Positions 5,365 through 24,530 of a stretch of DNA of 64,000 bases are shown here, one piece after another. The translations under genes and the position numbers were made by a program. Each line of letters starts with the position of its first letter. Within the stretch, counting starts at the first letter, position 1. The notes below the pieces were generated by a model. That model was not told the DNA's origin, searched no databases, and was given only the letters and a program-made list of their open reading frames with translations. The stretch covers positions 448,001-512,000 of the forward strand of contig OY762069.1 of assembly GCA_963665095.1 (NCBI GenBank), in the 5' to 3' direction. The stretch is from an uncultured Desulfobacter sp. (lineage in GTDB: Bacteria > Desulfobacterota > Desulfobacteria > Desulfobacterales > Desulfobacteraceae).

Positions 5365-5402
5365 AAAAAGGGGCGTATATTCGTACGGTATACGCCCCTT
5401 TT
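5365..5402. terminator. Bidirectional intrinsic terminator
   Basis: aaaaaggggcgtata...tatacgcccctttt hairpin between convergent genes. Confidence 0.8.
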
Positions 5403-5451: not shown

Positions 5452-6555
5452 TTATAGGATTGTCAGATCCCTGTTTGAGTGATTCAGGGTTTCTCCCCTT
5501 CCGTTTTCATTGACAATATAAATATCTTCAATGCGCATGCCCACCTCACCGGGGATATAAATGCCCGGTTCAATACTGAAGGCCATGCCCGGTTCAAGCA
5601 CTGTATCTGAACCGCCCCGGATAAAAGGTTCTTCATGGACATCCATGCCGATGCCGTGGCCGGTGCGATTTAGAAAATAATCCCCATACCCTGCCTGTTC
5701 AATGACGCTGCGTGCAGCATGATCCACGTCTGCTGCAGTGGCGCCTTGCCTGACACTGGACGCGGCAGATTCAAACGCCTGTTTGACAATCGCATAAATT
5801 TCTTTTTCACGCTCGTTCGGGGCACCCACAAAAAAGGTGCGGGAGGTGTCCGAGCAGAAACCGTTTACCATGCAGCCGAAATCCAGGATAATTACATCTT
5901 TTTCTGTAATGATTCTGTCATATCTGTTGTAGTGAGGCCTGGAATTGTTTGATCCGGATGCTACAATAGGCGTGAAAGAGGGCGGGGCATTTTTTTTGTC
6001 AAAAGCATCCAGAATGAAATTTTTTATGTCAAGTTCGCTGATCCCCGGCCGGATAAAGGATTTGAGATCATCCATGACGATATCAGCGAGCGTGCCGGCT
6101 TTCCGCATGAAATCCAGTTCCTGGCTGGTTTTAATAATCCGGCAGGAAGACAGAATTTGTCTTGCATCAAAAAAACGGCACTTGGGAAACAACGCCTCAA
6201 CGGCCATCAGATCCACAGCCCGCACAGCATCACTGACGGCAATGGATGCCTTTGACAGGCCATGGGTTTTAAATGCCCTGGCCACTGCATCTTCAAATAT
6301 TTCTGCATCATCCCATACATACATGGGCGTATTTTCCGGCAGGGCGTTTGCCATGTCTTCCAGGTATATACGGTTGGTGACGCAAAAAATAGTTTTGTCC
6401 GGCAGGGCAAAGACTGCCTGGAACCGTTCACAGCCGCCGGGGTTGAATCCGAAAAAAAAGTGCATATCCCCGGATGGTGGGATGATTACGGCATCCATGC
6501 CGGCATCACCCATTGCCCGGGCAAGTTGTTCCTGCCTGTGTAATAAACTGTTCAT
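5452..6555 (-). CDS. Xaa-Pro dipeptidase/aminopeptidase (M24B, prolidase-like)
   Basis: Creatinase-like N-terminal domain plus M24 metal motifs DFGC...SDTSRT, GHGIGMDVHE, SIEPGIY, RIED. Confidence 0.9.
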   Translation of the reverse strand: MNSLLHRQEQLARAMGDAGMDAVIIPPSGDMHFFFGFNPGGCERFQAVFALPDKTIFCVTNRIYLEDMANALPENTPMYVWDDAEIFEDAVARAFKTHGLSKASIAVSDAVRAVDLMAVEALFPKCRFFDARQILSSCRIIKTSQELDFMRKAGTLADIVMDDLKSFIRPGISELDIKNFILDAFDKKNAPPSFTPIVASGSNNSRPHYNRYDRIITEKDVIILDFGCMVNGFCSDTSRTFFVGAPNEREKEIYAIVKQAFESAASSVRQGATAADVDHAARSVIEQAGYGDYFLNRTGHGIGMDVHEEPFIRGGSDTVLEPGMAFSIEPGIYIPGEVGMRIEDIYIVNENGRGETLNHSNRDLTIL

Positions 6556-6652
6556 TTTTGGGTTCCCATAAAAAAGCCGAAGGCATAAATCCCCCGGCAG
6601 TGATTGTTTTTTTAACGGGTAACGGGTTGTGTCCGTATTCCGGTGAAAGTTC

Positions 6653-7636
6653 CTACATCAGCCGCTCTGCATGGTGACAGGCAATCTGCCGGTTCTCAAG
6701 CATTCGCAATTTGGGGCGCTCCATGCGGCACTGCTCTGTCATATACCGGCAGCGCTGATGAAAAGGGCACCCCGGAGGCGGGTCAAGGGGCGAAGGCAGC
6801 TCTCCGGACAGGCGAATTCTGCCGATGCGCCGTTCCTTGTCCACATGGGGGGTGGCCGCCATGAGTGCAACCGTATACGGATGAAGGGGTTTGTCGAAGA
6901 TCTGGTTTTTATCTCCCTGCTCCACCGGACGGCCGAGATACATGACCAGCACCTCGTCACTGATCAGGCGAACCACGGACAGGTCATGGGAGATAAACAG
7001 GTAGGCCAGGTTCATCTCCTCCTGAAGATCCATAAAAAGGTTCAAAGCCTGGGCCTGGACAGAGACATCCAGGGCTGATACCGGCTCGTCTGCCACCACA
7101 ATATCGGGATTAAGCATCAGCGATCGTGCAATGGCAATGCGCTGGCGCTGGCCTCCTGAAAACATGTGGGGATACCGGGCGTACTGCTCGGCACTTAATC
7201 CCACCTTATCCATAATTTCAAGGGCCTTTTCCTTTTTTTCTGCAGCACTGAATTCTGTGTTAATATCCAGGGGCTCGGTGAGGATGCTGCCCACTTTTTT
7301 TCTTGGATTCAAAGAACCGTAGGGATCCTGGAATACGATCTGCACACGGGAGCGCAGCTGTTTGCGATGCGCCTTATCCGTGGTGTTGACATGGATGCCA
7401 CCGATAAAAAGATCGCCTGCTGTGGGCGGTTCAATCATGGTTACGACTCTTGCAAGGGTGGACTTACCGCAGCCGGACTCTCCCACCACTGCCAGGGTCT
7501 TGCCCTTTTCAAGGGTAAAGGAGACCCCGTCAAGGGCCTTCAGGTTCACCTTTTTTTTGATAAAAGTCCCCTGTTTTACCGTGTAGTACCGGGTCAGCTC
7601 TTTTGAAACAAGAATGGGGTTGTTTTCCATATTCAC
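6653..7636 (-). CDS. dppF: Dipeptide ABC transporter ATP-binding subunit
   Basis: GESGCGKST, FQDPYGSLNPR, FSGGQRQR, DEPVSALD, C-terminal oligopeptide HPY/Cys domain. Confidence 0.92.
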   Translation of the reverse strand: MNMENNPILVSKELTRYYTVKQGTFIKKKVNLKALDGVSFTLEKGKTLAVVGESGCGKSTLARVVTMIEPPTAGDLFIGGIHVNTTDKAHRKQLRSRVQIVFQDPYGSLNPRKKVGSILTEPLDINTEFSAAEKKEKALEIMDKVGLSAEQYARYPHMFSGGQRQRIAIARSLMLNPDIVVADEPVSALDVSVQAQALNLFMDLQEEMNLAYLFISHDLSVVRLISDEVLVMYLGRPVEQGDKNQIFDKPLHPYTVALMAATPHVDKERRIGRIRLSGELPSPLDPPPGCPFHQRCRYMTEQCRMERPKLRMLENRQIACHHAERLM

Positions 7637-7640
7637 GTCC

Positions 7641-8594
7641 TTAATTCAGGGGATAGTGGCAGCGGACAGCCCCGCTGTCTTGGCAAAGGGTTAGTTGCGG
7701 AGACTGTTCTTTGCATAAATTCTTTGCATGGGCGCACCGCGGGTGAAACAGACATCCCTTTGGGCGGTTGTATTTTCCCGGCACAAGGCCAGGGATGACT
7801 GGCAGCCTACGGGCGGCAACATTCCGTTCCGGCAGGGCGGATAAAAGCGCTTCAGTATACGGATGCCGGGGGTTGTTAAAAATATTGTCCGAAGTGTTTT
7901 TTTCAACCACCTGGCCTGCATACATCACCACCACGTTTTCCACGGTTTCCGCAATCACGGCCATGTCGTGGGTGATAAGGATCAATGCCATCTGCCGCTC
8001 TTTCTGCAGGTCCAGAAGAAGGTCCATGATCTGTGCCTGAATGGTGACATCAAGGGCTGTGGTAGGTTCATCTGCAATGAGAAGGCTTGGGTTGCAGGCA
8101 ATGGCCATGGCAATCATCACCCGCTGACACATGCCGCCGGAGAGCTGATGGGGAAAACATTTAAGCCGCTCTGCCGGTGCGGGAATTCCCACCTGACTGA
8201 GCAGTTCCACGGCCCTGTCTTTTCTCTGGGCCTTTGTCCCGCCCTCGTGGACCTTAAGGGCCTCTTTAATCTGAAAGCCCACGGTAAAGCAGGGGTTCAG
8301 GCTGGTCATGGGTTCCTGGAAGATCATGGCCACCTCCTTGCCCGTGATGGCCCGGCGTTTTTTGCGATCCATGGACAACAGATCCCGGCCCCCAAAGCAA
8401 AGGGTGTCGGCCCGGATAATGCCGGGGTAGGGGATCAGCCCCATAAGCGCGAGCTGGGTAACACTTTTCCCTGAACCGGATTCGCCTACAACGCCTAAAA
8501 CTTCACCCTTCCCAAGACAGATACTGACATCGTCAACAGCCTTGAATCCGTCAAAATCTACAGATAGTTTTTCTATATCAAGTAATTGCGTCAT
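7641..8594 (-). CDS. dppD: Dipeptide ABC transporter ATP-binding subunit
   Basis: [34 protein letters not shown]. Confidence 0.92.
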
Positions 8595-8598
8595 GGTT

Positions 8599-9543
8599 TT
8601 ATCTTTTCATTTTGGGATCAAGTGCGTCCCGCAATCCGTCACCGGCAAGGTTGAAGGCCAGCACGGTTAAAAGTATGGCAAGTCCCGGAAAGGTGACCAC
8701 CCACCAGGCTCTCTGGACAAACTGCAGGGCGTTGGCAAGCATGGCCCCCCATTCAGGGGTGGGCGGCTGAGCCCCCATGCCCAGGAAGCCCAAGGCTGCT
8801 GCATCCAGAATCGCCGATGAAAATCCCAGCGTGGCCTGGACAATGAGCGGGGCCATGCAGTTGGGCAGCAGTACAATGAACATCAGCCTGAATTTTCCGG
8901 CGCCGCATACTTTGGATGCCGTGACATAATCCTGACCCTTTTCAGACATGACCGATGCCCTTGTCAGACGTACATAATGGGGCAGCATGATCACTGAAAT
9001 AGCCACAATGGCGTTTTGCAGACTTGGGCCAAGCACTGCCACAATGGCCATGGCCAGCAAGAGGCTTGGCAGGGCCAGCATAATGTCCATCATGCGCATG
9101 ACAATGATCTCAAACGCCCCTTCAAAAAAACCGGCTGTCAGGCCCAGAATAATGCCAAGGCCAAGGGACAGGGTTACGGCAAGTACGCCCACAAAAAGAG
9201 AGAGTCTTGCCCCGTGAATCAGGCGGGAGAGAATGTCTCTGCCCACATCGTCAGTGCCCAGAATAAACTTGGTGGTGCCCCCGTCCTGCCAGAAGGGCGG
9301 GGCTAAAATGGCGTCCCGGAATTGTTCAAAGGGACTGTGGGGGGCCAGAACATCAGCAAAAACCGCCACTAAAATGGCAATAATGATAAAATAGAGTCCT
9401 GCCACAGCACCTTTGTTTTCGCTGAAGTATTTCCAGAACTCCTTAACAGGGTGGTCCGGGCCGCTGGCCGTTGCCGGCAGCACGGCTGTGTTTTCCGTCA
9501 TATTTCCTCCACTTGGGGTCTGATTTGGCTCTGAGGGGCTCAT
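8599..9543 (-). CDS. dppC: Dipeptide ABC transporter permease (start may be 9501)
   Basis: [43 protein letters not shown]. Confidence 0.92.
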
Positions 9544-10550
9544 CAGGTGCGCCGGATACGGGGGTTAATGATCCCGTAAAGAATGTCCACACAAAGATTG
9601 ACCAGAATAATGATTGAGGCAATGATGAGAATCCCGCCCTGGACAGCCGGGTAGTCGCGCCGGGATATGGATTCCACCATCCACTTTCCCACCCCGGGCC
9701 AGGCAAAAATGGTTTCCGTGAGAATAGCCCCTGCCAGAAGCACCCCGGTCTGAAGACCGATGACGGTGATGACCGGGATCATGGCGTTGCGCAGCGCATG
9801 GATCATGGTCACCCGAAAGGGAGAAAGTCCTTTGGCCTTGGCAGTGCGCACATAATCGGTCTGAAGTACTTCAAGCATGGAGGAGCGGGTCATCCGGGCA
9901 ATAACTGCTAAAGGGATGGTGCCCAGAACGATGGAGGGCAGGATCAGGTGACTGACGGCAGAAGTAAACGCGCCCTTTTCATCTGAGCGCAGCGCATCAA
10001 TGAGCATGAACCCTGTGTCCGCATCCACCCAGAAAAGCGCTGAGATCCTGCCAGACACCGGTGTCCAGCCAAGGTTCACCGAGAAAAGCAGGATAAAAAG
10101 GATGCCCAGCCAGAAAATGGGCATGGAATACCCGGTCAAAGAGACGGCCATCACTGAATGGTCAAACACCGATCCCCGCTTGACCCCTGCCAGCATGCCC
10201 ACAGGAAGGCCAATGGAAACCGCAAAGATCATCGCACAGATGGACAGCTCCATGGTGGCGGGGAAAAGGGAGAAAAATTCTTTTAATATCGGCTTTTTGG
10301 TTACAAAGGATTTGCCTAAATCCCCGTGGAGAATGCCGTTTATATATCTGAAGTACTGAACATATAACGGATCATCCAGCCCCATCTCCGCCTTAAGTTT
10401 TGCATGGCGGGCCGCATCAATACCCCGTTCACCGGCCCGCATCTCTACAGGATCACCCGGGATCAGGTGAATCAGGGAAAAGGTTAAAAGGGTGATGCCG
10501 ATAAAGGCAGGGAAAATATGTAGAAATCGCTTAAAAAGAAATTGAATCAT
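9543..10550 (-). CDS. dppB: Dipeptide ABC transporter permease
   Basis: LIPGDPV, GDLGKS, DYVRTAKAKGL, ETIFAWPG, RRDYP. Confidence 0.92.
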   Translation of the reverse strand: MIQFLFKRFLHIFPAFIGITLLTFSLIHLIPGDPVEMRAGERGIDAARHAKLKAEMGLDDPLYVQYFRYINGILHGDLGKSFVTKKPILKEFFSLFPATMELSICAMIFAVSIGLPVGMLAGVKRGSVFDHSVMAVSLTGYSMPIFWLGILFILLFSVNLGWTPVSGRISALFWVDADTGFMLIDALRSDEKGAFTSAVSHLILPSIVLGTIPLAVIARMTRSSMLEVLQTDYVRTAKAKGLSPFRVTMIHALRNAMIPVITVIGLQTGVLLAGAILTETIFAWPGVGKWMVESISRRDYPAVQGGILIIASIIILVNLCVDILYGIINPRIRRT

Positions 10551-10585
10551 GATTTCTTATCGCTTTGGCATGTCATGTCAAGCAG

Positions 10586-10618
10586 CAGGGCCGCATGCTG
10601 TAACAGCTTGCGGCCCTG
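10586..10618. other. Intercistronic stem-loop after dppA (mRNA stabiliser or partial terminator)
   Basis: cagggccgca...tgcggccctg inverted repeat between dppA and dppB. Confidence 0.55.
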
Positions 10619-10635
10619 TCGCCTGGTTGGTTTTT

Positions 10636-12228
10636 TTATTTAAGGTCTACGCCATAAAAAATGTGACCGCCAAAGGGATCAATCTTGTAATCCACCACCT
10701 CTTTTCTGATGGGTTCAAAGACAATTGAATGCGCAATGGTGATCCAGGGAGCCTGTTCTTTAAACAGTTTCTGAGCTTCCCTGTAATATTCGGTTCTCTT
10801 GGCAACATCAGAGGTCAGCTTTGCCTTTTGAAGCAGATTATCAAAGGGTTTGTAACACCATCTGGCGCGGTTGGCTGAACCAATGGCATCGCAACCCAGA
10901 AGAACGCCCATGAAGTTGTCTGGGTCACCGTTGTCGCCGGTCCAGCCCAGAAGTACGGTCATGTGTTCGCCTTCTTTGGAGCGTTTCAGGTATTCGCCCC
11001 ATTCATAGGTCACAATTTTTGCCTTCACACCCAGCTTGGCCCAGTCAGCCTGGATCATCTCTGCCATGCGGCGGGCGTTGGGGTTGTAAGGACGCTGTAC
11101 CGGCATGGCCCACAGATCCGTTTCAAAGCCGTCTTTCAATCCTGCTTCTGCCAGCAGTTTTTTAGCGCCTTCGATATCGTAGGGGTAATCTTTAACGGTT
11201 TCGTTGTATGACCAGATGGTGGGGGGGATGGGGTTGGTGGCGGCTTTGCCGGCACCCTGGTAGATGGCGTCAATAATGGCGGCCTTGTTCACAGCCATGT
11301 TCAACGCTTTTCTCACCCGGACATCATCATAGGGTTTTTTCTCAGTGTTAAACGCCAGGTAGCCGACATTCAATCCCTCTTTTTCCATAAGATTGATATC
11401 GCCGTCCTTTTTCATGGCAGCCAGATCCGCCGGATTGGGGTAAGGCATCACATGGCATTCACCCTTTTTCAGTTTTGCATAGCGAACAGAGGGGTCCGGA
11501 GTGATGGAGAATACCAGTTTGTCAATGTTTGCCTTGCCCTGCCAGTAGGTGGGATGGGCCTTATAGCGGATCAGGGAGTCTTTCTGATAGGAGACAAACA
11601 TGAAAGGTCCTGTGCCAATGGGTTGCTGGTCAAACATTTCAGGGGTGCCGGCCTTCATCATGTTGTCGGCATATTCCTTGGAGTGGATGGAGGCAAAGTC
11701 CATGGCCAGGTTGGCGATAAACGGGGCTTCCGGCTTGTTCAGTTTGAACACGATTGTGTAATCATCTGTTTTGGTCAGGGATTCAATGAGCTCTCCCATA
11801 CCCATGGCTTCGTAGTATTCGTAAGAAGCACCGGATACTTCGTTATAGTATTCACCCTTTCTTGCACGGTTAAAGGTGAATAGAACATCATCCGCATTAA
11901 ACTGGCGGGTGGGCGTAAAAAAAGGCGTGGTATGAAAATCCACGCCTTTTCTCAAGTGAAAGGTATAGGTTTTGCCGTCTTCAGATACATCCCAGGATTC
12001 TGCAAGACCGGGAGTAACCTTGGTGGTGCCTCTTTCAAAAAGAACCAGGCGGTCAAATACATTTTTGGAAGAAGCATCAAAGGTGGTGCCTGCGGTGTAG
12101 TGAATGGGAGTAAACCCTTCAGGGCTGCCCTCAGAGCAGTACACCAGGGTTTTTGCCTGAACAGATGCCGCCATAAATGCAAACATCAGAACAAACAAAA
12201 AAGAAAACACAGCTTTTTTCAATTTCAT
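10636..12228 (-). CDS. dppA: Dipeptide ABC transporter substrate-binding protein
   Basis: Signal peptide, KTLVYCSEGSPEGF, WAMPVQRPYNPNARRMAEMIQADW and GWTGDNGDPDNF, all typical of DppA. Confidence 0.93.
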   Translation of the reverse strand: MKLKKAVFSFLFVLMFAFMAASVQAKTLVYCSEGSPEGFTPIHYTAGTTFDASSKNVFDRLVLFERGTTKVTPGLAESWDVSEDGKTYTFHLRKGVDFHTTPFFTPTRQFNADDVLFTFNRARKGEYYNEVSGASYEYYEAMGMGELIESLTKTDDYTIVFKLNKPEAPFIANLAMDFASIHSKEYADNMMKAGTPEMFDQQPIGTGPFMFVSYQKDSLIRYKAHPTYWQGKANIDKLVFSITPDPSVRYAKLKKGECHVMPYPNPADLAAMKKDGDINLMEKEGLNVGYLAFNTEKKPYDDVRVRKALNMAVNKAAIIDAIYQGAGKAATNPIPPTIWSYNETVKDYPYDIEGAKKLLAEAGLKDGFETDLWAMPVQRPYNPNARRMAEMIQADWAKLGVKAKIVTYEWGEYLKRSKEGEHMTVLLGWTGDNGDPDNFMGVLLGCDAIGSANRARWCYKPFDNLLQKAKLTSDVAKRTEYYREAQKLFKEQAPWITIAHSIVFEPIRKEVVDYKIDPFGGHIFYGVDLK

Positions 12229-12349
12229 CTTCTCTCTCCTTTTTAGGTTTTAGGTTGTGCTTTGTTAGGAACCTGTCAGACCTCTTATCATGATCTGCAG
12301 ATTTTGTCTGCTGAAATCCAATCGTTGGTTTCAGACATATTCATTTTTT

Positions 12350-14710
12350 TTATTGCATTTCTTGTGCTGTACGACTGATGATCTCCTCCTGGTGATCACG
12401 GTCAAGATCCACAAAATAATCACTGTAACCTGCCACCCGCACCAGAAGGTTGCGGTAGTTGTCCGGATTATTCTGGGCGTCACGCAGGGTGTTGGTATCC
12501 ACCACGTTGAACTGGACATGGTGGCCCCCTAACCCGAAATAGGTACGGATCAGGGCGGTCAGTTTTTTTAAGTCCTTGTCCGTTGACAGCACCGACGGCA
12601 GGAATCTTTGGTTGAGCAGGGTGCCGCCGGATTTTGCCTGGTCCATTTTGGACAGGGATTTAATCACTGCGGTGGGTCCGTTTTTGTCCGCCCCGTGGGA
12701 GGGAGATGTGCCGTCGGATTCAGGGGCATGGGCAAACCGTCCGTTGGGGGTTGCCCCCAGCATTTTGCCAAAGTAAACATGACAGGTGGTGGAGAGCATG
12801 TTGAGCCGGTAGACCGTGCCTTTGGTGTTGGGCTTGCCGTCAATGGCGGCAAGCAGGCTTTTATACACCTGCTGCATGATGGTATCGGCCCTGTCGTCAT
12901 CATTGCCGAAAAATGGCGTACGGTTCCACAGTTTGAGACGCAGGGCTTCGGCGTCTTTGAAGTTGGTGGACAGGGCGTTTAAAAGTTCTTTCATGGAGAC
13001 GGATCCTGTTTCATACACATGGGTCCGGATGGCGGACAGGCTGTCAGTTACCGTGCCGATGCCACAGCACTGGATATAGTTGGTGTTGTACTTTGGCCCG
13101 CCATTGTAATAATCTTTCCCCTTGTCAATGCAGCCGTCAATTACGGTGGAGAGCAAAGGCGCCGGGCAGTAGGCCGCATACATACGCTCAATATAGTTGT
13201 TTACCCGGATCTTTAAATTAACAATATACGCCAGCTGGGCTTCAAACCCGGCATAGAGCTTTTCATAGGTATCAAAGGATTCTGGATCACCGGTTTCAAT
13301 ACCTACCATCTGCCCTGACAGTGGATCAATTCCGTTGTTCAGGGTAATTTCAAGAATTTTAGGCACATTGAGATAGCCTGTGAGGATGTAGGCTTCCTTG
13401 CCGAAACAGCCGGTTTCAATGCATCCGCTGGTGCCGCCCTGCCTGGCGTCCTCCACAGTCTTTCCCATGCCCACCTGTTCCATGATCACCGTGTCAGTAT
13501 TAAAAACAGAAGGGTAACCATGGCCTTTTTTAATCACCCGGGCCGCAGCATCCAGGAAGCGTTCCGGGGTTTTTGTGCTGACATGCACCGACGGCTGGGG
13601 CTGGAGAAGCGCCAGTTCGTCTGCCACCTCCAGGGCCATGAAGGAGACCTCACTGGACCCGTCACTGCCGTCGCCCTTAAGACCGCCCAGATTCACCTGG
13701 GTAAAATCGTTGTATGTGCCGCTCTCCCTGGCCGTTACCCCCACCTTGGGCGGAGCAGTATGGTTGTTAATCTTAATCCAGAGACAGGCCAGAAGTTCCT
13801 TGGCTTTATTTCTGTCAATGGTGCCGGTTTCCACCTCTTTTTCGTAAAAAGGGGCCAGGTGCTGGTCCAGATGTCCGGGTGACATGGCGTCCCAGCCGTT
13901 AAGTTCTGTGATGGTGCCCAGATGGACAAACCAGTACATTTGAATAGCCTCGTGAAAGGTTGATGGGGCGTGTTCCGGCACTTTCCGGCACACCCGGGCG
14001 ATTTCCAGAAGTTCTTTTTTGCGTGAGGTGTCTGTTTCTTTCTGTGCCAGCTGTTCTGCCAGGTCTGCATGACGCCGGGCAAAAACGATCAGGGCATCGC
14101 AGGCAATTTTCATGGCGGAAAGCGTCTCAAACCGGTCCGATGCCTCAGGATCATTCATATAGTCCAGTGCATCCATCCGGGCCTGGATCCGGGCTTTAAA
14201 ATCTGCCATCCCCGTCTGGTAGATTTGACCGTCCAGTGCGGTATGTCCTGGTGCCCTTTGTTCCATGAATTCAGTGAAAAGACCGGCCTGATATGCGTTT
14301 TTCCAGTTTTCCGGCACCTGGCTGAAAATTCGGTCCCGGATAGAACGGCCCTGCCAGTAGGGAATCACCTTTTCCTCATAGGTCTGAATATCTTTTTTTT
14401 CCACCCTGTAGCGGGTCATGGGCCGGGTGTTCAGGGTTTCAAGGTCAGCGGTCGTATGGCAGGTGAGCTCAGGGAAAGTTGGCACCACTTTGGGGGCAGG
14501 CCCACGTTCTCCCACGATCAACTCCTTTTCTCCGATGTAAATAGTTTTTTCCCGGCACAGGGTGTCAAAGAACTTAGCCCGGAGCACCGGCAGGGAGTAC
14601 CGACCGGCGTTATTTTGGTAAAATTTTGTTTCAATCAATGCCCGTTCAATGGAAATGGCCGGCGTTGCATTAAAACTTAAATTTCGTAAATATGTGATAC
14701 GTTCGTTCAT
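12350..14710 (-). CDS. hypD: Glycyl radical enzyme, trans-4-hydroxy-L-proline dehydratase
   Basis: Glycyl loop RVAGY and Cys loop GGTSGCIE. HypD-type motifs FMEQRAPGH, WDA, ESGTYNDF, YILTGY and MLSTTCH match the spacing of C. difficile HypD active-site residues as recalled. Confidence 0.88.
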   Translation of the reverse strand: MNERITYLRNLSFNATPAISIERALIETKFYQNNAGRYSLPVLRAKFFDTLCREKTIYIGEKELIVGERGPAPKVVPTFPELTCHTTADLETLNTRPMTRYRVEKKDIQTYEEKVIPYWQGRSIRDRIFSQVPENWKNAYQAGLFTEFMEQRAPGHTALDGQIYQTGMADFKARIQARMDALDYMNDPEASDRFETLSAMKIACDALIVFARRHADLAEQLAQKETDTSRKKELLEIARVCRKVPEHAPSTFHEAIQMYWFVHLGTITELNGWDAMSPGHLDQHLAPFYEKEVETGTIDRNKAKELLACLWIKINNHTAPPKVGVTARESGTYNDFTQVNLGGLKGDGSDGSSEVSFMALEVADELALLQPQPSVHVSTKTPERFLDAAARVIKKGHGYPSVFNTDTVIMEQVGMGKTVEDARQGGTSGCIETGCFGKEAYILTGYLNVPKILEITLNNGIDPLSGQMVGIETGDPESFDTYEKLYAGFEAQLAYIVNLKIRVNNYIERMYAAYCPAPLLSTVIDGCIDKGKDYYNGGPKYNTNYIQCCGIGTVTDSLSAIRTHVYETGSVSMKELLNALSTNFKDAEALRLKLWNRTPFFGNDDDRADTIMQQVYKSLLAAIDGKPNTKGTVYRLNMLSTTCHVYFGKMLGATPNGRFAHAPESDGTSPSHGADKNGPTAVIKSLSKMDQAKSGGTLLNQRFLPSVLSTDKDLKKLTALIRTYFGLGGHHVQFNVVDTNTLRDAQNNPDNYRNLLVRVAGYSDYFVDLDRDHQEEIISRTAQEMQ

Positions 14711-14716
14711 CTTAGA

Positions 14717-15625
14717 TTAACCTCCAATGGTAGTGTAAAGGCCGTGGGCTTGAAGAAGATCTGCACACCGGGCTATTTTTTTATCGGAAGGGCGTTGCAG
14801 GGAAAAATTGGGTATTTCCATGCCCAGCTTTTTATATTTTCCAGCAGCCATGTCATGGAAGGGCAGAAGATCTACCCGGCTTTTAGGCCGGATTCCGGAA
14901 ATGAATCTGCCGGTATTGTTAATATTGTCCGGATCTGTATTCACCCCTTCTATCAGGGGGATTCGAAACCGGATATCCGCGCCGGCAGCTGCCAGAAAAC
15001 GGATATTGTCAAGGATGAGTTCATTGGGTCTGCCAGTGAACTTTTCATGCGCGGCACTGTTCATATGTTTGAGATCGACAAGAAACAGATCTGTCAGGCC
15101 GGCAATTTTTTCGAGCAGGGCTGTCCGGGTATACAGGCAGGTATCCACAGCACAATGAATGTTTATCGCTTTACAGGCCTTAAGCAGTTCCAGTAAGAAT
15201 TGGGGCTGAAACAAGGGGTCGCCTCCGGAAAAGGTCACCCCGCCACCGGACTGGTCATAAAAGGGGATATCCTTTTTAATCTGGGTTATGACGTCATTGA
15301 TATCCACAATGCGCCCCACAGCTTCGTGGGCCAGGGCTGGACAGGTTTCTGCGCAATGGCCGCATCCGGTGCACAGTGATTTGTTCCGGAAAATAGCGCC
15401 TTGATTCAGGGTCAGGGCATTGGCGTCACACGCCTTTATGCACTGGCCGCAGCCGATGCATAATTTTTTTTGCCAGATATGCTCAATGCCCGGGATAATG
15501 CCTTCAGGGTTGTGACACCAGGCGCACCGTAACGGGCACCCTTTGAAAAATACCGTTGTCCGGATATTGGGCCCGTCATGAATGGCATATTTTTTTATGG
15601 CAAAGATCTGCCCCCTTTCTGTCAC
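14717..15625 (-). CDS. Glycyl-radical enzyme activating protein (radical SAM with ferredoxin-like insert)
   Basis: HDGPNIRTTVFFKGCPLRCAWCHNPE, two extra Cys clusters (CIGCGQC...C, CTGCGHC...C), GGVTFSGG. Ends 6 nt before the GRE start. Confidence 0.93.
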   Translation of the reverse strand: MTERGQIFAIKKYAIHDGPNIRTTVFFKGCPLRCAWCHNPEGIIPGIEHIWQKKLCIGCGQCIKACDANALTLNQGAIFRNKSLCTGCGHCAETCPALAHEAVGRIVDINDVITQIKKDIPFYDQSGGGVTFSGGDPLFQPQFLLELLKACKAINIHCAVDTCLYTRTALLEKIAGLTDLFLVDLKHMNSAAHEKFTGRPNELILDNIRFLAAAGADIRFRIPLIEGVNTDPDNINNTGRFISGIRPKSRVDLLPFHDMAAGKYKKLGMEIPNFSLQRPSDKKIARCADLLQAHGLYTTIGG

Positions 15626-16344
15626 GCTCTTTGGCCCTCCATCAGCTTGGAGAATTTCAGAACATGCTGCCTGGCAGCCGCTTCAGCTTCCTTCGGTTCT
15701 TTCTGGGTAACAGCCCTGTGAATGGCTTTCAGGTCATTGACATCCTCTGTGAGCAACGTGTTTGAAAAGGGCAGAAAGGTCTGGAAATAGACATGGATAT
15801 TTTCATGAATACAGGTCTGGTTGGCCAGTAGCAGTGGATTGTCCGCCATAAGGGCTATCTGTTGGTGAAAAAGAGCATCCAGCCGGTGAAATTCGTCGAA
15901 GTTGTCCGGGTTGGTGGCGGCATGGGCCTCAATGTCAGCCATAATCGTATCCAGTTCCTTCATTTGATCTGCGGTGACATTGGACGCGGCTTTCCGGGCC
16001 GCATATCCTTCAAGAAAGGCTCTGAACTCCGCTAAATGTTCCAGAGAACACTGCTGGTGGCGAATCATCACGGCAATGCTGTCCTGCATGGCCCGGGTAT
16101 TTGCGGGCTGGACCTCGGCGCCGCCCTTAACACCGGCTCGGATAGCCACAAGCCCTTTGTTTTCAAGTACCAGCAACGCCTCTCGGATGGTACCCCGGCT
16201 GGTATTAAAGGTCTCTTTGAGTTGCATCTCCGGGGGCAGGCGGTCGCCGGCCTTGATGCTGCCGTTAAATATGGCTTCTTCAATCTGTTCCACCACATGT
16301 TCATAGGACTTTTTGGGGGTTGCTTGGGTAAAGTTCAGGGCCAT
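15622..16344 (-). CDS. GntR/FadR-family transcriptional regulator
   Basis: wHTH GDRLPPE...SRGTIREAL and FCD domain (DALFH...NPLL). ATG 16344 has a GGAG RBS (track start is 16359). GTGA overlap with the activase. Confidence 0.9.
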   Translation of the reverse strand: MALNFTQATPKKSYEHVVEQIEEAIFNGSIKAGDRLPPEMQLKETFNTSRGTIREALLVLENKGLVAIRAGVKGGAEVQPANTRAMQDSIAVMIRHQQCSLEHLAEFRAFLEGYAARKAASNVTADQMKELDTIMADIEAHAATNPDNFDEFHRLDALFHQQIALMADNPLLLANQTCIHENIHVYFQTFLPFSNTLLTEDVNDLKAIHRAVTQKEPKEAEAAARQHVLKFSKLMEGQRA

Positions 16345-16382
16345 GACTGCTCCATACATATATACTTTATGTCGAATTGTTT

Positions 16383-16422
16383 AATTGTCTGACAATTTAA
16401 GTGCCTTTGAATTTTTTGTCAA
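16383..16422 (-). promoter_or_regulatory. Sigma70 promoter (TTGACA-17-TAAATT) overlapped by a FadR-type operator AATTGTC-T-GACAATT
   Basis: On the minus strand, -35 lies at 16422-16417 and -10 at 16399-16394. The palindrome at 16383-16397 fits the FadR-subfamily pattern TNGT-N3-ACNA. Confidence 0.65.
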
Positions 16423-16509: not shown

Positions 16510-17448
16510 TTGGAAAATCAGTTTCACATACCTGCCCAAACAGCCTTCTGGGATATAAATTGCCTGCCTGTAGCTCCGGTATCACGCATGGCACCAACAC
16601 CATCCGGTTTTTTGCATCTGGGCAATGCCGTTAATTTCCTGATGACCTGGGCCATTGTAAGAAGCCGTAACGGCAAGCTTCATTTGAGAGTAGATGACAT
16701 GGACGGGATCAGATTCCGGCAGGATGTGCTGGAGGACATATTTTACAGTCTGGAGTGGCTGGGTGTGGACTGGGATACCGGGCCATCAGGACCGGAAGAA
16801 TTTTACCATACCTTTTCCCTGCAAAAAAAGAAACCTGATTACTGGGAACGGTTGTGCGGGCTTATGGAGGGGACTGACAAGACCTTTGCCTGCCAGTGCA
16901 GCCGGTCCGCCATTAAACAGGCAAGTTCAGACGGGCTTTATCCCGGTACCTGCCGGGATAAAGGGCTATTGTTTCAACCCGGCCGCCATGCCATCCGGTT
17001 AAAGGTAGACAAAGACACCGTTGTTCGGGTGAATGAAACTAACATTGACTTAAGCGGGGAGTTTGGTGACTTTGTGATCTGGCGCAAGGACGATCAGCCA
17101 AGCTATCACCTGGCAAGCCTGCTTGAGGATGAAGCAGGGGGCGTCAATTTAATTATCAGAGGAGAGGACCTTTTTTCCTCCACGGCTGCCCAGGTCTATC
17201 TGGCCAGCTGTTTCGGATTTGCCGGCTTTCCTTCCTGTCATTTTATTCACCACGGGCTTGTACGTGACTGCGCTGGTGAAAAACTTTCCAAATCCAGGGG
17301 AGCCTTTGCCCTTAAGGACATACGCGAAGCAGGCGGGACGCCCCTTGCTGCTGTAAGAACGGCCGCCCGTTTTTTAGGGGTGATCGAAGATGAAGTTGCA
17401 TCTGCAAATGACTTGTTACGATCAGTGGCAGGTCCTGTTCAATTTTAA
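16510..17448 (+). CDS. gluQ: Glutamyl-Q tRNA(Asp) synthetase-like protein (GluRS catalytic domain only)
   Basis: RMAPTPSGFLHLGN (HIGH-like), LRVDD, CxCSR...YPGTC, GDFVIWRKD, IIRGEDL, KLSKS. About 310 aa with no anticodon-binding domain. Confidence 0.75.
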   Translation: MENQFHIPAQTAFWDINCLPVAPVSRMAPTPSGFLHLGNAVNFLMTWAIVRSRNGKLHLRVDDMDGIRFRQDVLEDIFYSLEWLGVDWDTGPSGPEEFYHTFSLQKKKPDYWERLCGLMEGTDKTFACQCSRSAIKQASSDGLYPGTCRDKGLLFQPGRHAIRLKVDKDTVVRVNETNIDLSGEFGDFVIWRKDDQPSYHLASLLEDEAGGVNLIIRGEDLFSSTAAQVYLASCFGFAGFPSCHFIHHGLVRDCAGEKLSKSRGAFALKDIREAGGTPLAAVRTAARFLGVIEDEVASANDLLRSVAGPVQF

Positions 17449-20360: not shown

Positions 20361-20912
20361 TTGACACAATCGACCCCCGGCGGTTGCGGCGCTGTTCAAC
20401 CGGAAAGGCGCAAAAAAAAGTTTTCAGTTACCTCATTTTTTTTGACCTTTTTGCTCATGTTTTTCACCTGGGTGATCCTGTCCGGAAATTTTTCAGGATT
20501 GCTTATCAGTTTGGGGCTGATATCCAGCTTGCTTGTGGCCTGGTTTTTTCACGATCTGCTTTTTCCCCATGTGACATCCCGGTATCCGGGTCTTTTTTTC
20601 CGTTTTATCGTCTATATTCCCTGGCTGATCTGGGAAATCGTAAAAGCGAATTTTCACCTGATGTTCCTGGTGTTCCATCCAAGGATGAAAGAGTTGATTG
20701 ATCCCCACATAACAGTTTTTCATACCGATCTGACATCAGATATTGCCATTACCACCCTGGCCAACTCCATAACGCTTACCCCGGGCACTATTACGGTGAG
20801 GGCAACAAATGACGGTGAATTCTCGGTTCATGCCATTGACAGGCCGTCTGCCGATGCCCTGCCCGGCACCATGGTGGACAAGGTGGCTGATATCTACGGA
20901 GAAAAATTATGA
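20361..20912 (+). CDS. mnhE: Mrp/Mnh Na+/H+ antiporter subunit E
   Basis: WEIVKAN, LANSITLTPGTIT, VHAI. Confidence 0.9.
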   Translation: MTQSTPGGCGAVQPERRKKKFSVTSFFLTFLLMFFTWVILSGNFSGLLISLGLISSLLVAWFFHDLLFPHVTSRYPGLFFRFIVYIPWLIWEIVKANFHLMFLVFHPRMKELIDPHITVFHTDLTSDIAITTLANSITLTPGTITVRATNDGEFSVHAIDRPSADALPGTMVDKVADIYGEKL

Positions 20913-21202
20913 ATACCTTTTTTTTATGCATTGGTTTAGGTCTTTGCCTGCTCATGTTTGTTTCCTTCTTCCGGTGCCTGGTGGGGCCCACTGTTTTAGA
21001 CCGGCTTATCGGCGTAAATGCCATCGGTACTAAAACCGTTGTCCTGCTTCTGCTGATAGGCCTTTTGTATGGGCGGGTGGATATGTTTGTGGACATTGCC
21101 CTGGCCTATGCATTCTTAAACTTTGTCGCTGTTATTGCTGCATCCCGGTATTTTCATAAAAGAAAAGGCCTGTATGAAGGATCCTTTAAGGAGACGCCAT
21201 GA
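20909..21202 (+). CDS. mnhF: Mrp/Mnh antiporter subunit F
   Basis: GPTVLDRL, DIALAYAFLNF. Confidence 0.9.
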   Translation: MNTFFLCIGLGLCLLMFVSFFRCLVGPTVLDRLIGVNAIGTKTVVLLLLIGLLYGRVDMFVDIALAYAFLNFVAVIAASRYFHKRKGLYEGSFKETP

Positions 21203-21543
21203 ACCTTTTTGTTATCATCTGTCTGTGCATTGGATTTCTATTTTTTCTTGGAGGCACCGTGGGAATCATCCGGATGCCCGATTTTTACTCACGGCTCCAT
21301 CCGGCAGGCAAGCTGGACACCTTGGGACTTTTTGCCATGGTGTCAGGCCTTGCTGCCTACAATCTGCATCATTTCTCCTTTGGAACCCTGCTGTTGTCCA
21401 TTAAGATGATGCTTGTGGTCTTTTTTGTATTCCTGTCAAGTCCCACGGCCACTCACTCCATTGTGGATGCCGGTATGCGGGCCGGCTTAAGTCCCTGGAC
21501 CCGGAAAAAACGTTCCCAATTCAACGGCACAGGAGAGGAATAG
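21199..21543 (+). CDS. mnhG: Mrp/Mnh antiporter subunit G
   Basis: GIIRMPDFYSRLH, SPTATH. Confidence 0.9.
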   Translation: MNLFVIICLCIGFLFFLGGTVGIIRMPDFYSRLHPAGKLDTLGLFAMVSGLAAYNLHHFSFGTLLLSIKMMLVVFFVFLSSPTATHSIVDAGMRAGLSPWTRKKRSQFNGTGEE

Positions 21544-21545
21544 TT

Positions 21546-21791
21546 ATGTACTGGCCCATTGATCTGATTATTTTAACCTTTGTCATTGTCTGTGCCTTAG
21601 CAGCCATCTACGTAAAGGATCTTTTAGGAACGGCAATCCTTTTCGGGGCCTACTCCTTTATGATGTGTCTTTTGTGGGCCGTCATGGGGGCTGTGGATGT
21701 GGCCTTTACCGAAGCAAGCGTTGGCGCAGGCGTCAGCACCGTGTTTTTCGTGGCCGCTGTATTTAGAACCAGCAGGAGGACAAAAGATTGA
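21546..21791 (+). CDS. DUF4040/MbhD-like Mrp subunit (equivalent to part of the MrpA C-terminus)
   Basis: GAVDVAFTEASVGAG motif, three TM segments. Confidence 0.82.
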   Translation: MYWPIDLIILTFVIVCALAAIYVKDLLGTAILFGAYSFMMCLLWAVMGAVDVAFTEASVGAGVSTVFFVAAVFRTSRRTKD

Positions 21792-22606
21792 AACTGTTAA
21801 GTCTGATTGTGGTCTGCCTGACCGGCGGGCTTTTATTGTACGGAACAGCCGATCTGCCGGACTGGGGGGATGCCAATGCACCGGCGTCGCTTCACCTGTC
21901 TGATTATTATATTGAAAATGCCGTAAAGGATACTGAAGTGCCCAATCTGGTGACAGCTGTCCTGGCCGACTATAGAGGGTTTGACACCATGTTTGAAACT
22001 GCAGTGGTGTTTTGTGCCGGCCTGGCCTGTTTTCTTCTGCTTAGAGATTTTACGCCCAAGCAGGATCACTATTATCGGCATGTGCCCACCGGCGTAATTC
22101 TTCATGTGAAAAATCCGGAGCGGAAAGTTGTCACAGGCAATGAATTTGAAGATATGGACAAGGAGTGGGTGCCTTCGGATACCATCATCAAAACGGCGTG
22201 CCGGATTCTGATTCCCTTTATTCAGATTTACGCCTTTTATGTCGTGGCCCACGGGGATTTTTCCCCGGGCGGCGGGTTCCAGGGTGGCGTCATTTTCGGG
22301 TCCAGCCTGATTCTTCTGGCCATCTCATATAATTTGAAATACCTGATCAAACGGGTGGGGGAAAAATTTTTAGGGATACTTTCTGCAGCCGGTGTTCTGG
22401 TTTATGTGGGCATTGGCGCCATTGTCATGGTGCTTGGCGGAAACTTTCTGGATTATGGGAAATATGCCCCGATCTTCGGGGAACACCATATACGGGCCTT
22501 GGGTATGCTCGGGGTTGAAATCGGCGTGGGCATGGCTGTGACTGCTGTCATGGTCATTATCTACATTAATATCGTGTCTGAAGGCAGGCACGATGAAGGA
22601 TTGTAA
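21788..22606 (+). CDS. mnhB: Mrp/Mnh antiporter subunit B (MbhE-like plus MnhB fusion)
   Basis: NLVTAVLADYRGFDTMFE and HGDFSPGGGFQGG. Confidence 0.88.
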   Translation: MKLLSLIVVCLTGGLLLYGTADLPDWGDANAPASLHLSDYYIENAVKDTEVPNLVTAVLADYRGFDTMFETAVVFCAGLACFLLLRDFTPKQDHYYRHVPTGVILHVKNPERKVVTGNEFEDMDKEWVPSDTIIKTACRILIPFIQIYAFYVVAHGDFSPGGGFQGGVIFGSSLILLAISYNLKYLIKRVGEKFLGILSAAGVLVYVGIGAIVMVLGGNFLDYGKYAPIFGEHHIRALGMLGVEIGVGMAVTAVMVIIYINIVSEGRHDEGL

Positions 22607-22615
22607 GGAAGCGCT

Positions 22616-23017
22616 ATGGCTGAATTTTTTACACTGATCGCGGCCAAATACAATTACTGGCTTTATATTATTCTGATGATGATCGGTCTTTATGCCATGA
22701 TTGCCAAAAATAACCTGATGAAAAAGCTGGTGGGCATGAACATTTTCCAGACCGCCATCATCCTGTTCTACGTCTCCATCGGGTTTAAGCACAATGCCAC
22801 GATCCCTATTATCATGGGAGACCATGGTCACGGCGGGCACGGGGCTGCAATCCATGCAGCCGATTACATCAATCCGGTGCCCCATGTGCTCATGCTCACT
22901 GCCATTGTGGTCTCCGTGGCCACATTCGGGGTGGCCATGGCTCTTTGTGTCAGGGTTTACCAGCGGTATCACACCCTGGAAGAAGATGAACTAAGAATGC
23001 GCCTATCGGAAAAATAA
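22616..23017 (+). CDS. mnhC: Mrp/Mnh antiporter subunit C
   Basis: NLMKKLVG, NPVPHVLMLTAIVV. Confidence 0.9.
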   Translation: MAEFFTLIAAKYNYWLYIILMMIGLYAMIAKNNLMKKLVGMNIFQTAIILFYVSIGFKHNATIPIIMGDHGHGGHGAAIHAADYINPVPHVLMLTAIVVSVATFGVAMALCVRVYQRYHTLEEDELRMRLSEK

Positions 23018-23021
23018 GATT

Positions 23022-24530
23022 ATGAATCACTATCCAGCCATTGTTGTCATCGCTCCCCTGTTAGGGGCCTTTATCGCCGGAATTCTTGCATGGGTTCAGG
23101 ATCGGTATACCTATCCTGCCACGCTAGTTGCCGTGGGTATTTCCTGTGCCGCTGCCGTCTATGACCTGATTTTTGTGGCAGCCAACGGCCCCATTGCCTA
23201 CCATATGGCCGGCTGGGCCCCGCCCATGGGCATTGAATATCGCATTGACACCCTGAACGCCATGGTCCTGGTCCTGATCACAGCCATTGCCTTTTTAAAC
23301 CTTGTGGCATCCTGGCCCAATGTGAAAAAGGAGCTGCCGGACCGCAGCCCCTCTTTCTACGTGATGTATCTTCTATTTGTGGTGGGACTGACAGGCGTTG
23401 CATCCACCGGGGACTTGTTTAACTTGTATGTCCTGATCGAAATCACCTCGCTGAGTTCCTACACGATGATCGCCCTGGGCGACAGGGACCGGGGGCCGAT
23501 TTCTGCTTTGAACTATATTTTTGTGGGTGTCATAGGTGCCTCGTTCTATCTTCTCGGGGTAGGTTACATCTATATTAAGACCGGGACGCTGAACATGGCG
23601 GAGTTTGCATCCATGGTGCCGGCCATTCAGGATTCCACCACCCTTCTCACCGCCTTTATCCTGTGCATTGTGGGGGTCTTCATTAAAATGGCCCTGTTTC
23701 CTTTGCATGTCTGGCTGCCCAATGCCTACAGCTTTGCACCAGTGGGCTTTGCCCGGATCGTGGCCCCGCTGATGACCAAGGTGATGGTTTATGCCATGGT
23801 GCGGCTGATGCTCACCGTTTTTGGCCTGGACTATATCTTCATTCATCTGCACCTGGCCGACACTGTGGTGTGGCTGGGCACTATTGCGATTCTGGCCGGT
23901 GGTGTCATGGCCCTGGCCCAGACGAATCTTAAAAAAATGCTCGCATATATCATCGTGTGTGAAATCGGGTACATGGTGGGCGGTGCCTGGCTGGGTAATG
24001 ATGCCGGCCTGACAGGTGCGATCCTTCACACTTTGAACGACGGGATCATGACCTTTGCCCTGTTCCTTGCTGTGGGTAACATGGTCTACAAACTGGACCG
24101 GGTAGAGATACGTGATCTTCAGGGGCTGTTTGCGAAAATGCCCTGGACCATGACCGGATTTGTCCTGGCCGCCTTCAGTATCGTGGGCGTGCCGCCCACC
24201 TGCGGATTCTTTTCCAAATGGTATCTGATTTTAGGGGCGTTTCAGGCCGGGGCCTGGCATTTTGCCGGGGCACTGCTCATTTCATCCCTGATCTGCGCCA
24301 TCCTTTTTTTCAAGGTGTTCGAGGTCTGCTTTTTCGGGTCCACGGACACAGGGGACGGGCATGGCAGCGATGCCCATGGCCACCATGGACATCATGCCCC
24401 TGTGGCGATCCAGGAGGCCCCGGCTATATCCCTTGTGATCCTGGGTCTGGCTGGCATCAGCCTGGTTGTGATGGGGCTGTATTCAAAAACAATCGTTGTC
24501 AGAATGATCTGGCCGTTATTGAATCCGTAA
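23022..24530 (+). CDS. mnhD: Mrp/Mnh antiporter subunit D family, copy 1
   Basis: GWAPPMGIE, TGDLFNLYVLIE, KMALFPLHVWLPNAY, GVPPTCGFFSKW. Confidence 0.88.
   Translation: MNHYPAIVVIAPLLGAFIAGILAWVQDRYTYPATLVAVGISCAAAVYDLIFVAANGPIAYHMAGWAPPMGIEYRIDTLNAMVLVLITAIAFLNLVASWPNVKKELPDRSPSFYVMYLLFVVGLTGVASTGDLFNLYVLIEITSLSSYTMIALGDRDRGPISALNYIFVGVIGASFYLLGVGYIYIKTGTLNMAEFASMVPAIQDSTTLLTAFILCIVGVFIKMALFPLHVWLPNAYSFAPVGFARIVAPLMTKVMVYAMVRLMLTVFGLDYIFIHLHLADTVVWLGTIAILAGGVMALAQTNLKKMLAYIIVCEIGYMVGGAWLGNDAGLTGAILHTLNDGIMTFALFLAVGNMVYKLDRVEIRDLQGLFAKMPWTMTGFVLAAFSIVGVPPTCGFFSKWYLILGAFQAGAWHFAGALLISSLICAILFFKVFEVCFFGSTDTGDGHGSDAHGHHGHHAPVAIQEAPAISLVILGLAGISLVVMGLYSKTIVVRMIWPLLNP

Follow-up and report, generated by a model that had tools for sequence, protein, structure and literature searches.

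A row of nine minus-strand genes in a 64,000-nucleotide stretch of an uncultured Desulfobacter sp. genome (GCA_963665095.1, contig OY762069.1, positions 448,001 to 512,000; hereafter the window, in whose positions coordinates are given) joins a glycyl radical enzyme (GRE), the trans-4-hydroxy-L-proline dehydratase HypD, to a dipeptide importer and to an M24B peptidase that carries asparagine in place of a histidine of the proline pocket. We consider it probable that the row serves the use of peptide-bound hydroxyproline (Hyp): Xaa-Hyp dipeptides would be imported and cleaved by the Asn-pocket peptidase, and the freed Hyp would be dehydrated by HypD to pyrroline-5-carboxylate (P5C) and oxidized to glutamate. 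All parts of the row are of known kinds; what is new is their combination and the pocket-altered peptidase. As a sequence-only reading of this DNA had claimed, the genes are co-oriented and tightly packed: nine minus-strand open reading frames run from 16359 to 5452, with intergenic gaps, from gntR to the peptidase gene, of −4, 6, 121, 85, −1, 4, 4, and 97 bp. This exact order was absent from every other locus examined.

HypD, its activase, and the fate of P5C

Judged by its sequence, the GRE encoded at 12350 to 14710 (minus strand) is HypD. It scores 1174.1 against the NCBIfam model NF043068 (cut-off, 1100) and is the sole GRE of seven in the genome to pass; the six others lie at 340 kb, 601 kb, 2.873 Mb, 3.008 Mb, 5.862 Mb, and 6.325 Mb of the genome. 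All seven HypD-type motifs quoted in the sequence-only reading are present, and its HypD call is borne out by the score and by the active site: the best Protein Data Bank (PDB) match is 6VXC, with a gap-free alignment, and 16 of 16 residues checked are kept, the window number being the Clostridioides difficile number minus 4. In C. difficile numbers, these are F152, R156, H160, W277, D278, K326, S334, D339, F340, C434, E436, L447, Y450, L643, T645, and G765. Thirteen of these numbers, all but those of L447, L643, and G765, are given in the accessible part of PMC7077986. In a FastTree phylogeny of 43 rows, among which C. difficile HypD itself was not included, the window GRE falls into one clade with other HypDs, set apart from two further GREs of the same genome with a support of 100, and its nearest named relatives are from Desulfobacteraceae.

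Directly upstream, the HypD activating enzyme (AE; 14717 to 15625, minus strand) is a radical SAM protein with a ferredoxin-like insert, one CxxxCxxC motif, and two CxxCxxC motifs. It scores 348.6 against NF043069, below the cut-off of 425, yet this is its best match, and it passes the general GRE-activase model TIGR02494. The HypD/HypD-AE/ProC cluster of C. difficile (6VXC and 6VXE; accessible parts of PMC7077986 and PMC6219649) is alike in enzyme family, in all 16 residues, and in its adjacent radical-SAM activase. The window differs from it in that hypD has no adjacent proC, which lies 5.3 Mb away, and shares its row with genes for a FadR regulator, a dipeptide importer, and a peptidase. 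The host also differs, being, as had been supposed, a sulfate reducer (dsrA scores 605 against a cut-off of 393), and PF09338 (proline reductase) found no match in this 97%-complete genome, nor in any control genome.

Elsewhere, the genome encodes an unlinked P5C dehydrogenase (791.7 against a cut-off of 613.6), 60% identical to hypD-linked ones, as well as a proline dehydrogenase. It is likely that P5C goes to glutamate rather than into Stickland proline reduction, and oxidation of P5C to glutamate where proC is absent has already been suggested in the accessible part of PMC6219649. The P5C dehydrogenase gene (L299:5744-9017, at ~3.936 Mb of the genome) is preceded by a gene for a piperideine-6-carboxylate dehydrogenase scoring above cut-off, an arrangement that suggests a unit for cyclic imino-acid oxidation. 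No match to M9 collagenase was found in the genome, and no positive control matched either. The U32/DUF3656 gene labeled "Collagenase" near some hypD loci belongs to a family that hydroxylates RNA, and the label was not used as support.

An M24B peptidase with an altered S1′ pocket

The last gene of the row (5452 to 6555, minus strand; PF00557 and PF01321) encodes a cytoplasmic M24B peptidase of a subfamily without the pocket histidine, a candidate Xaa-Hyp dipeptidase. The earlier label of M24B prolidase holds for the fold and the five metal ligands but fails at the S1′ pocket, where His is replaced by Asn296, so that this is no ordinary prolidase. Its model (pLDDT, 95.5) has a creatinase/prolidase N-terminal domain and a pita-bread domain and aligns at TM scores of 0.90 and 0.93 with the archaeal prolidases 1WN1 and 4RGZ. 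With M24B prolidases and aminopeptidase P (P. horikoshii 1WN1, T. sibiricus 4RGZ, L. lactis 4ZNG, and Escherichia coli PepP) it shares this two-domain fold, all metal ligands (D225, D236, H300, E329, and E343), and the substrate residues H208, H307, and R341. It differs from them in Asn296, which is His in the three nearest structures aligned, and it is 33 to 36% identical to the nearest solved prolidases. Residue 296 occupies the position of PepP His350, since its spacing to H307 (11) and E329 (33) equals that from His350 to His361 and Glu383 (PepP numbers from the accessible part of PMC4404410). The S1′ proline pocket is described in the accessible part of PMC5723419 as Arg406, Tyr388, and His350, conserved in aminopeptidase P and prolidase. 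Against named prolidase equivalogs, the best scores of the window peptidase stay below cut-off (181.7 versus 393 and 177.9 versus 630).

Among 120 close homologs, the named ones being from Desulfobacterales and clostridia such as Hathewaya, the position holds Asn in 113, Ser in 5, His in 1, and a gap in 1. When 150 representatives at 50% identity were ranked, it was non-His in 13 of the top 20 and His in 125 of the next 130. A quick M24 tree (134 rows, with His-type metagenome rows thinned to ~1 in 4) groups all 85 Asn rows within a single branch of 108 rows (SH-aLRT, 95), 16 of which are of the His type. The Asn subfamily was not found outside Desulfobacteraceae in 250 genomes of the class, and 39 plasmid matches to the peptidase were all below 60% identity (35 to 37% for those listed). 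The window genome also has a separate, His-type long aminopeptidase P. In C. difficile, an unlinked M24 gene induced in vivo is mentioned in PMC7815924.

The His-less type tracks hypD across genomes. Fourteen of 150 Desulfobacteraceae genomes have it (Asn seen in 13; one gene is cut off), and of these 14, hypD is present in 13 and a dpp ortholog in 13. We also sampled 121 genomes of Synergistota, taking peptidase matches at E ≤ 1e-90 and calling HypD-like genes by sequence match; 52 genomes had a peptidase match and 55 a HypD-like match. Where both occur (n = 45), the best peptidase match carries Asn in 42, Thr in 2, and Ser in 1, while the 7 genomes with a peptidase and no HypD have His in 6 and Asn in 1. 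A HypD-like gene is present in 45 of 46 genomes with a His-less peptidase, compared with 10 of 75 without one, and the two genes are not adjacent in this phylum. The two Synergistota genomes with a Thr-type peptidase (G167 and G173; loci L268 and L269) are among those whose HypD-like match is only 50% identical.

Eighty metagenome loci comprised 17 of the Asn type, 62 of the His type, and 1 of the Thr type, and hypD or activase lies beside 3 of the 17 Asn-type loci versus none of the 62 His-type loci (a more distant set, probably with other lifestyles). The three gene orders are prdA, prdB, a non-orthologous peptide ATP-binding cassette (ABC) system, M24(Thr), M24(Asn), AE, and hypD (L208); hypD, M24(Asn), a cupin regulator, and M24(Thr) (L182); and a Cys/Thr racemase-family gene, M24(Asn), and an activase cut by the contig end (L189). 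The best model for the racemase-family gene is 3-hydroxyproline dehydratase, at 388, below the cut-off of 540. We considered the second M24 genes at L208 and L182 as His-type partners, a reading that was rejected, as both carry Thr at the pocket position. In the quick tree, these Thr-type partners branch separately, with housekeeping enzymes (one long branch); two separate losses of the pocket His at hypD loci are therefore likely.

Other neighbors of Asn-type M24 genes hint at possible substrates. At L187:5313-11378, such a gene lies between GH31 and GH127 beta-L-arabinofuranosidase genes, which hints at plant Hyp-arabinoside peptides. At L185:2288-8873 and L198:3152-9351, the genes directly upstream encode an ABC system whose binding protein is of the DUF3798 family, with Hyp dipeptides as a candidate ligand; L194 has a similar ATPase and permeases.

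Two HypD clades and a shared dipeptide importer

Between hypD and the peptidase gene lie the same five dpp genes in the same order as in E. coli DppABCDF (1DPP and 8Z1Y), all on the minus strand. DppA (10636 to 12228) is a DppA-type dipeptide-binding protein with a signal peptide, whose best PDB matches are 8Z1Y, 5F1Q, and 1DPP; it scores 856.6 against the equivalog NF043070 (cut-off, 1005) and is closer to DppA (782 bits) than to the glutathione-binding protein 3M8U (624 bits). The permeases DppB (9543 to 10550) and DppC (8599 to 9543) score 505.5 against NF008161, below the cut-off of 590, and 489 against NF008160, above the cut-off of 483. The ATPases DppD (7641 to 8594) and DppF (6653 to 7636) score 489.2 against NF008246, below the cut-off of 541, and 546 against NF008453, above the cut-off of 408. 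Both residues that bind the ends of the dipeptide in E. coli DppA, Arg355 and Asp408, are kept in the window DppA as R379 and D432; the position of the Arg is supported by the 8Z1Z variant in the alignment. The role of Asp408 is described in the accessible part of PMC3295651. The window system differs from that of E. coli in that DppA, DppB, and DppD score too low for the E. coli-type equivalogs, several residues close to the binding motifs are changed, and the genes sit in a Hyp catabolic row.

HypD-like matches occur in 76 of the 150 Desulfobacteraceae genomes and form two groups, at 64 to 87% and about 50 to 54% identity to the window HypD. These correspond to separate, supported clades in the tree, A (with the window HypD) and B. 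The ~52% group, found beside dpp, was considered as a different enzyme; this was rejected, as none of the 16 residues is missing in any of 107 full-length GREs, and all four clade B proteins tested pass NF043068. Clade B activases (L164:6059-6814, L169:13128-13922, and other clade B loci) are ~250 aa long (clade A, ~300 aa), and their match to the activase model begins only at position 108, so that the ferredoxin-like insert seems to be missing.

Orthologs of the window dppA (69 to 85% identity) are present in 37 of the 150 genomes, and 32 of these 37 have a HypD match (33 when a contig-end fragment is counted). In 16 of the 37, dppA adjoins hypD or lies within 10 kb of it, always with a clade B HypD ~52% identical to that of the window; it directly follows hypD in 14 and is ≤10 kb away in 2 more (one, G138, from coordinates only). 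Two further peptide ABC groups, with binding proteins 41 to 43% and 26 to 29% identical, also flank clade B hypD. Of 30 clade B loci retrieved, 23 have class-5 peptide ABC genes close to hypD, representing three different groups of binding proteins; most of the 30 were chosen since coordinates suggested linkage, and among nine not so chosen, the count is three. The coupling of HypD to peptide import and an M24 peptidase that the sequence-only reading proposed recurs, as a link, in other genomes and phyla. Neither a hypD-dpp-M24 locus nor a His350-to-Asn prolidase was found described in the literature searched, a scope outside of which lie most subscription papers and supplements, the original HypD and PepP-mutant papers included. 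The word "peptidase" is likewise absent from the accessible part of a GRE review of 2026 (PMC13450708).

Several other genes accompany hypD. Five of the 30 clade B loci have an oligopeptidase F (M3) gene, and a pair of this gene and a TrmO-like gene points towards clade B hypD at L129, L130, L175, L349, and L351. Tripartite ATP-independent periplasmic (TRAP) transporters beside clade A hypD (L114, L116, L117, L118, L125, and L075) are candidates for free-Hyp uptake. At 12 mostly Desulfuromonadales-type loci (e.g., L047:5058-6383), the gene directly after hypD-AE, usually followed by one or two EamA genes, encodes a 441-aa membrane protein without a Pfam match at 1e-6, a candidate Hyp or P5C transporter.

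Regulation, mechanism, and alternatives

The first gene of the row (15622 to 16359, minus strand) encodes a GntR/FadR-family regulator (PF00392 and PF07729) that is 65 to 74% identical to GntR of two same-genus clade A hypD cassettes and 49 to 55% identical to that of clade B; its true start is probably the second ATG, at 16344, preceded by GGAG. Upstream lies a sigma-70-like promoter (TTGACA-17-TAAATT; 16394 to 16422, minus strand), the best-scoring site of the region by consensus match only (10/12); overall, there is no excess of promoter-like sites (20 versus 14.6 ± 3.3 in shuffles). A perfect 15-bp palindrome (16383 to 16397) covers the −10 box and is likely the operator of a FadR-type repressor. 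This is its single perfect copy in the 6.9-Mb genome (one mismatch at 2 sites, two mismatches at 24), and 10 of 21 other gntR-AE-hypD cassettes have a copy with ≤2 mismatches immediately ahead of gntR. The palindrome as a marker of a wider regulon was rejected, four other palindrome-like sites inspected being in or near unrelated genes.

A bidirectional terminator-like hairpin (5366 to 5402; −20.1 kcal/mol, z −5.1) closes the row between the peptidase gene and a convergent acyl-CoA ligase gene, just beyond the range of the sequence-only reading (5452 to 16422). That reading's one promoter/operator and one terminator agree with the promoter, palindrome, and closing hairpin but miss two further hairpins. 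One, between dppA and dppB (10579 to 10625, minus strand; −34.8 kcal/mol, z −6.5), is strong, lacks a T-tail, and possibly stabilizes the dppA message; the other, between dppF and the peptidase gene (6576 to 6598, minus strand), is weak and terminator-like, has a T-tail, and is not beyond chance (z −1.2). A single transcript for the nine genes appears plausible from these elements. Divergent from the row, a glutamyl-Q-tRNA synthetase-like gene (16510 to 17448, plus strand; below cut-off) also flanks AE-hypD in G076, the genome with the closest HypD. Farther out (20361 to 24530, plus strand) is a row of small and large membrane proteins, which by eye resemble Mrp/Mnh antiporter subunits.

In the mechanism that we propose, DppA would bind dipeptides such as Gly-Hyp, Ala-Hyp, or Pro-Hyp by their termini and DppBCDF would import them, as expected from family membership, with a presumed preference for Hyp. 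The two-metal peptidase would then hydrolyze Xaa-Hyp, with the smaller, polar Asn296 predicted to fit or hydrogen-bond the 4-hydroxyl. By analogy with C. difficile HypD, the activase would install a radical on Gly761, and HypD would dehydrate Hyp to P5C. The unlinked P5C dehydrogenase probably oxidizes P5C to glutamate, supplying carbon, nitrogen, and electrons for sulfate respiration, while ProC may give proline. The FadR-type protein is predicted to bind the conserved palindrome and would repress the promoter until an inducer is present.

A number of results weigh against this pathway. The six HypD-less, His-type Synergistota genomes form one clade in the quick tree and therefore represent about one event; kin are not independent, and draft completeness and shared lifestyle inflate co-occurrence. 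Fourteen of the 17 Asn-type metagenome loci lack hypD or activase in the available flanking DNA, and no Asn-type peptidase was found in 50 clade A HypD genomes (nine matches, all His), which fits HypD acting on free Hyp there. Neither a dpp set nor an M24 gene is present at any of the 80 closest HypD loci (50 of them with ≥9 kb downstream), which carry instead TRAP or branched-chain ABC transporters, EamA genes, P5C dehydrogenase (8 loci), or proline dehydrogenase (5 loci). The neighborhood survey speaks against the linkage near the window HypD and for it in clade B, where the same dppA is found; the coupling therefore likely arose twice, the window apparently being an independent second case in which this importer became linked to a HypD. 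Less probably, the row is an older cluster that broke up in relatives. The weak hairpin ahead of the peptidase gene is a further point of this kind.

We think it very unlikely that chance brought together a gntR-AE-hypD unit, serving free Hyp, and a dpp-peptidase unit that is independent of it and separately regulated. The window row does look like a join of two such units: its dpp-peptidase block matches ones that in G099 and G017 are remote from hypD (~4.9 Mb from the gntR-AE-hypD unit in the same-genus G099), and neither dpp-M24 stretch has a palindrome copy with ≤2 mismatches, which also counts against the proposed pathway. In G076 (87% HypD identity), the corresponding chromosomal site carries AE-hypD but no gntR, dpp, or peptidase genes, and the hypD-dppA gap of the window is 121 bp long. 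However, this gap has no promoter-like site on the coding strand, and in the 14 genomes noted above the gene right after clade B hypD is this Dpp ortholog.

General dipeptide scavenging is also unlikely, if less so. Here, loss of the histidine would have relaxed the P1′ pocket to give a broad dipeptidase for mixed amino acids including Hyp, and co-occurrence with HypD would reflect shared protein-rich anoxic niches. Near-fixation of Asn in the close group, the co-occurrence in Synergistota, and direct adjacency to hypD/AE, 3-Hyp, and proline-reductase genes in three unrelated loci argue otherwise, as does retention of R341 of the imino-acid pocket. Nevertheless, the position varies among the top 20 representatives (His 7, Thr 6, Asn 3, Tyr 2, Ser 1, and Gly 1), as a relaxed pocket would, Asn-type genes also adjoin other ABC systems and sugar genes, and DppA retains general terminus-binding residues. 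Furthermore, ordinary prolidases are stated to cleave C-terminal Pro or Hyp (accessible parts of PMC8438212 and PMC6215446), and Asn is therefore not required for Xaa-Hyp cleavage; this and the pocket variation count against the proposed pathway. We give the least credence of all, as highly improbable, to a non-dipeptide substrate (N-acyl-Hyp, a cyclic dipeptide, or a glycosylated Hyp peptide), with the M24 protein as an amidohydrolase like ectoine hydrolase DoeA. DoeA shares the fold (TM, 0.91) and one Asn-type gene adjoins GH127, but prolidases rank above DoeA by sequence and by fold, the five metal ligands are intact, and family-profile searches found no lactamase or glycosidase among the nine genes.

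Import and cleavage of Xaa-Hyp ahead of HypD is thus the reading that we prefer for the window. We know of no enzyme identified so far that frees Hyp from collagen-type dipeptides. Tentatively, and with less confidence than for the row itself, we suggest that the peptidase represents a dedicated Xaa-Hyp dipeptidase subfamily with a one-residue mark (His350 to Asn, independently Thr) in sulfate reducers, Synergistota, and proteolytic clostridia. It could be the missing enzyme that frees Hyp from resistant collagen dipeptides such as Pro-Hyp, and marine sulfate reducers might respire fragments of collagen or cell-wall glycoproteins directly. The locus offers a small, soluble peptidase candidate from a non-pathogen, with a one-residue hypothesis. 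If this holds true, the use of Hyp dipeptides could be recognized by this residue in sequences from anaerobes at large, and sediment sulfate reducers would take up peptides themselves, not fermentation products only.

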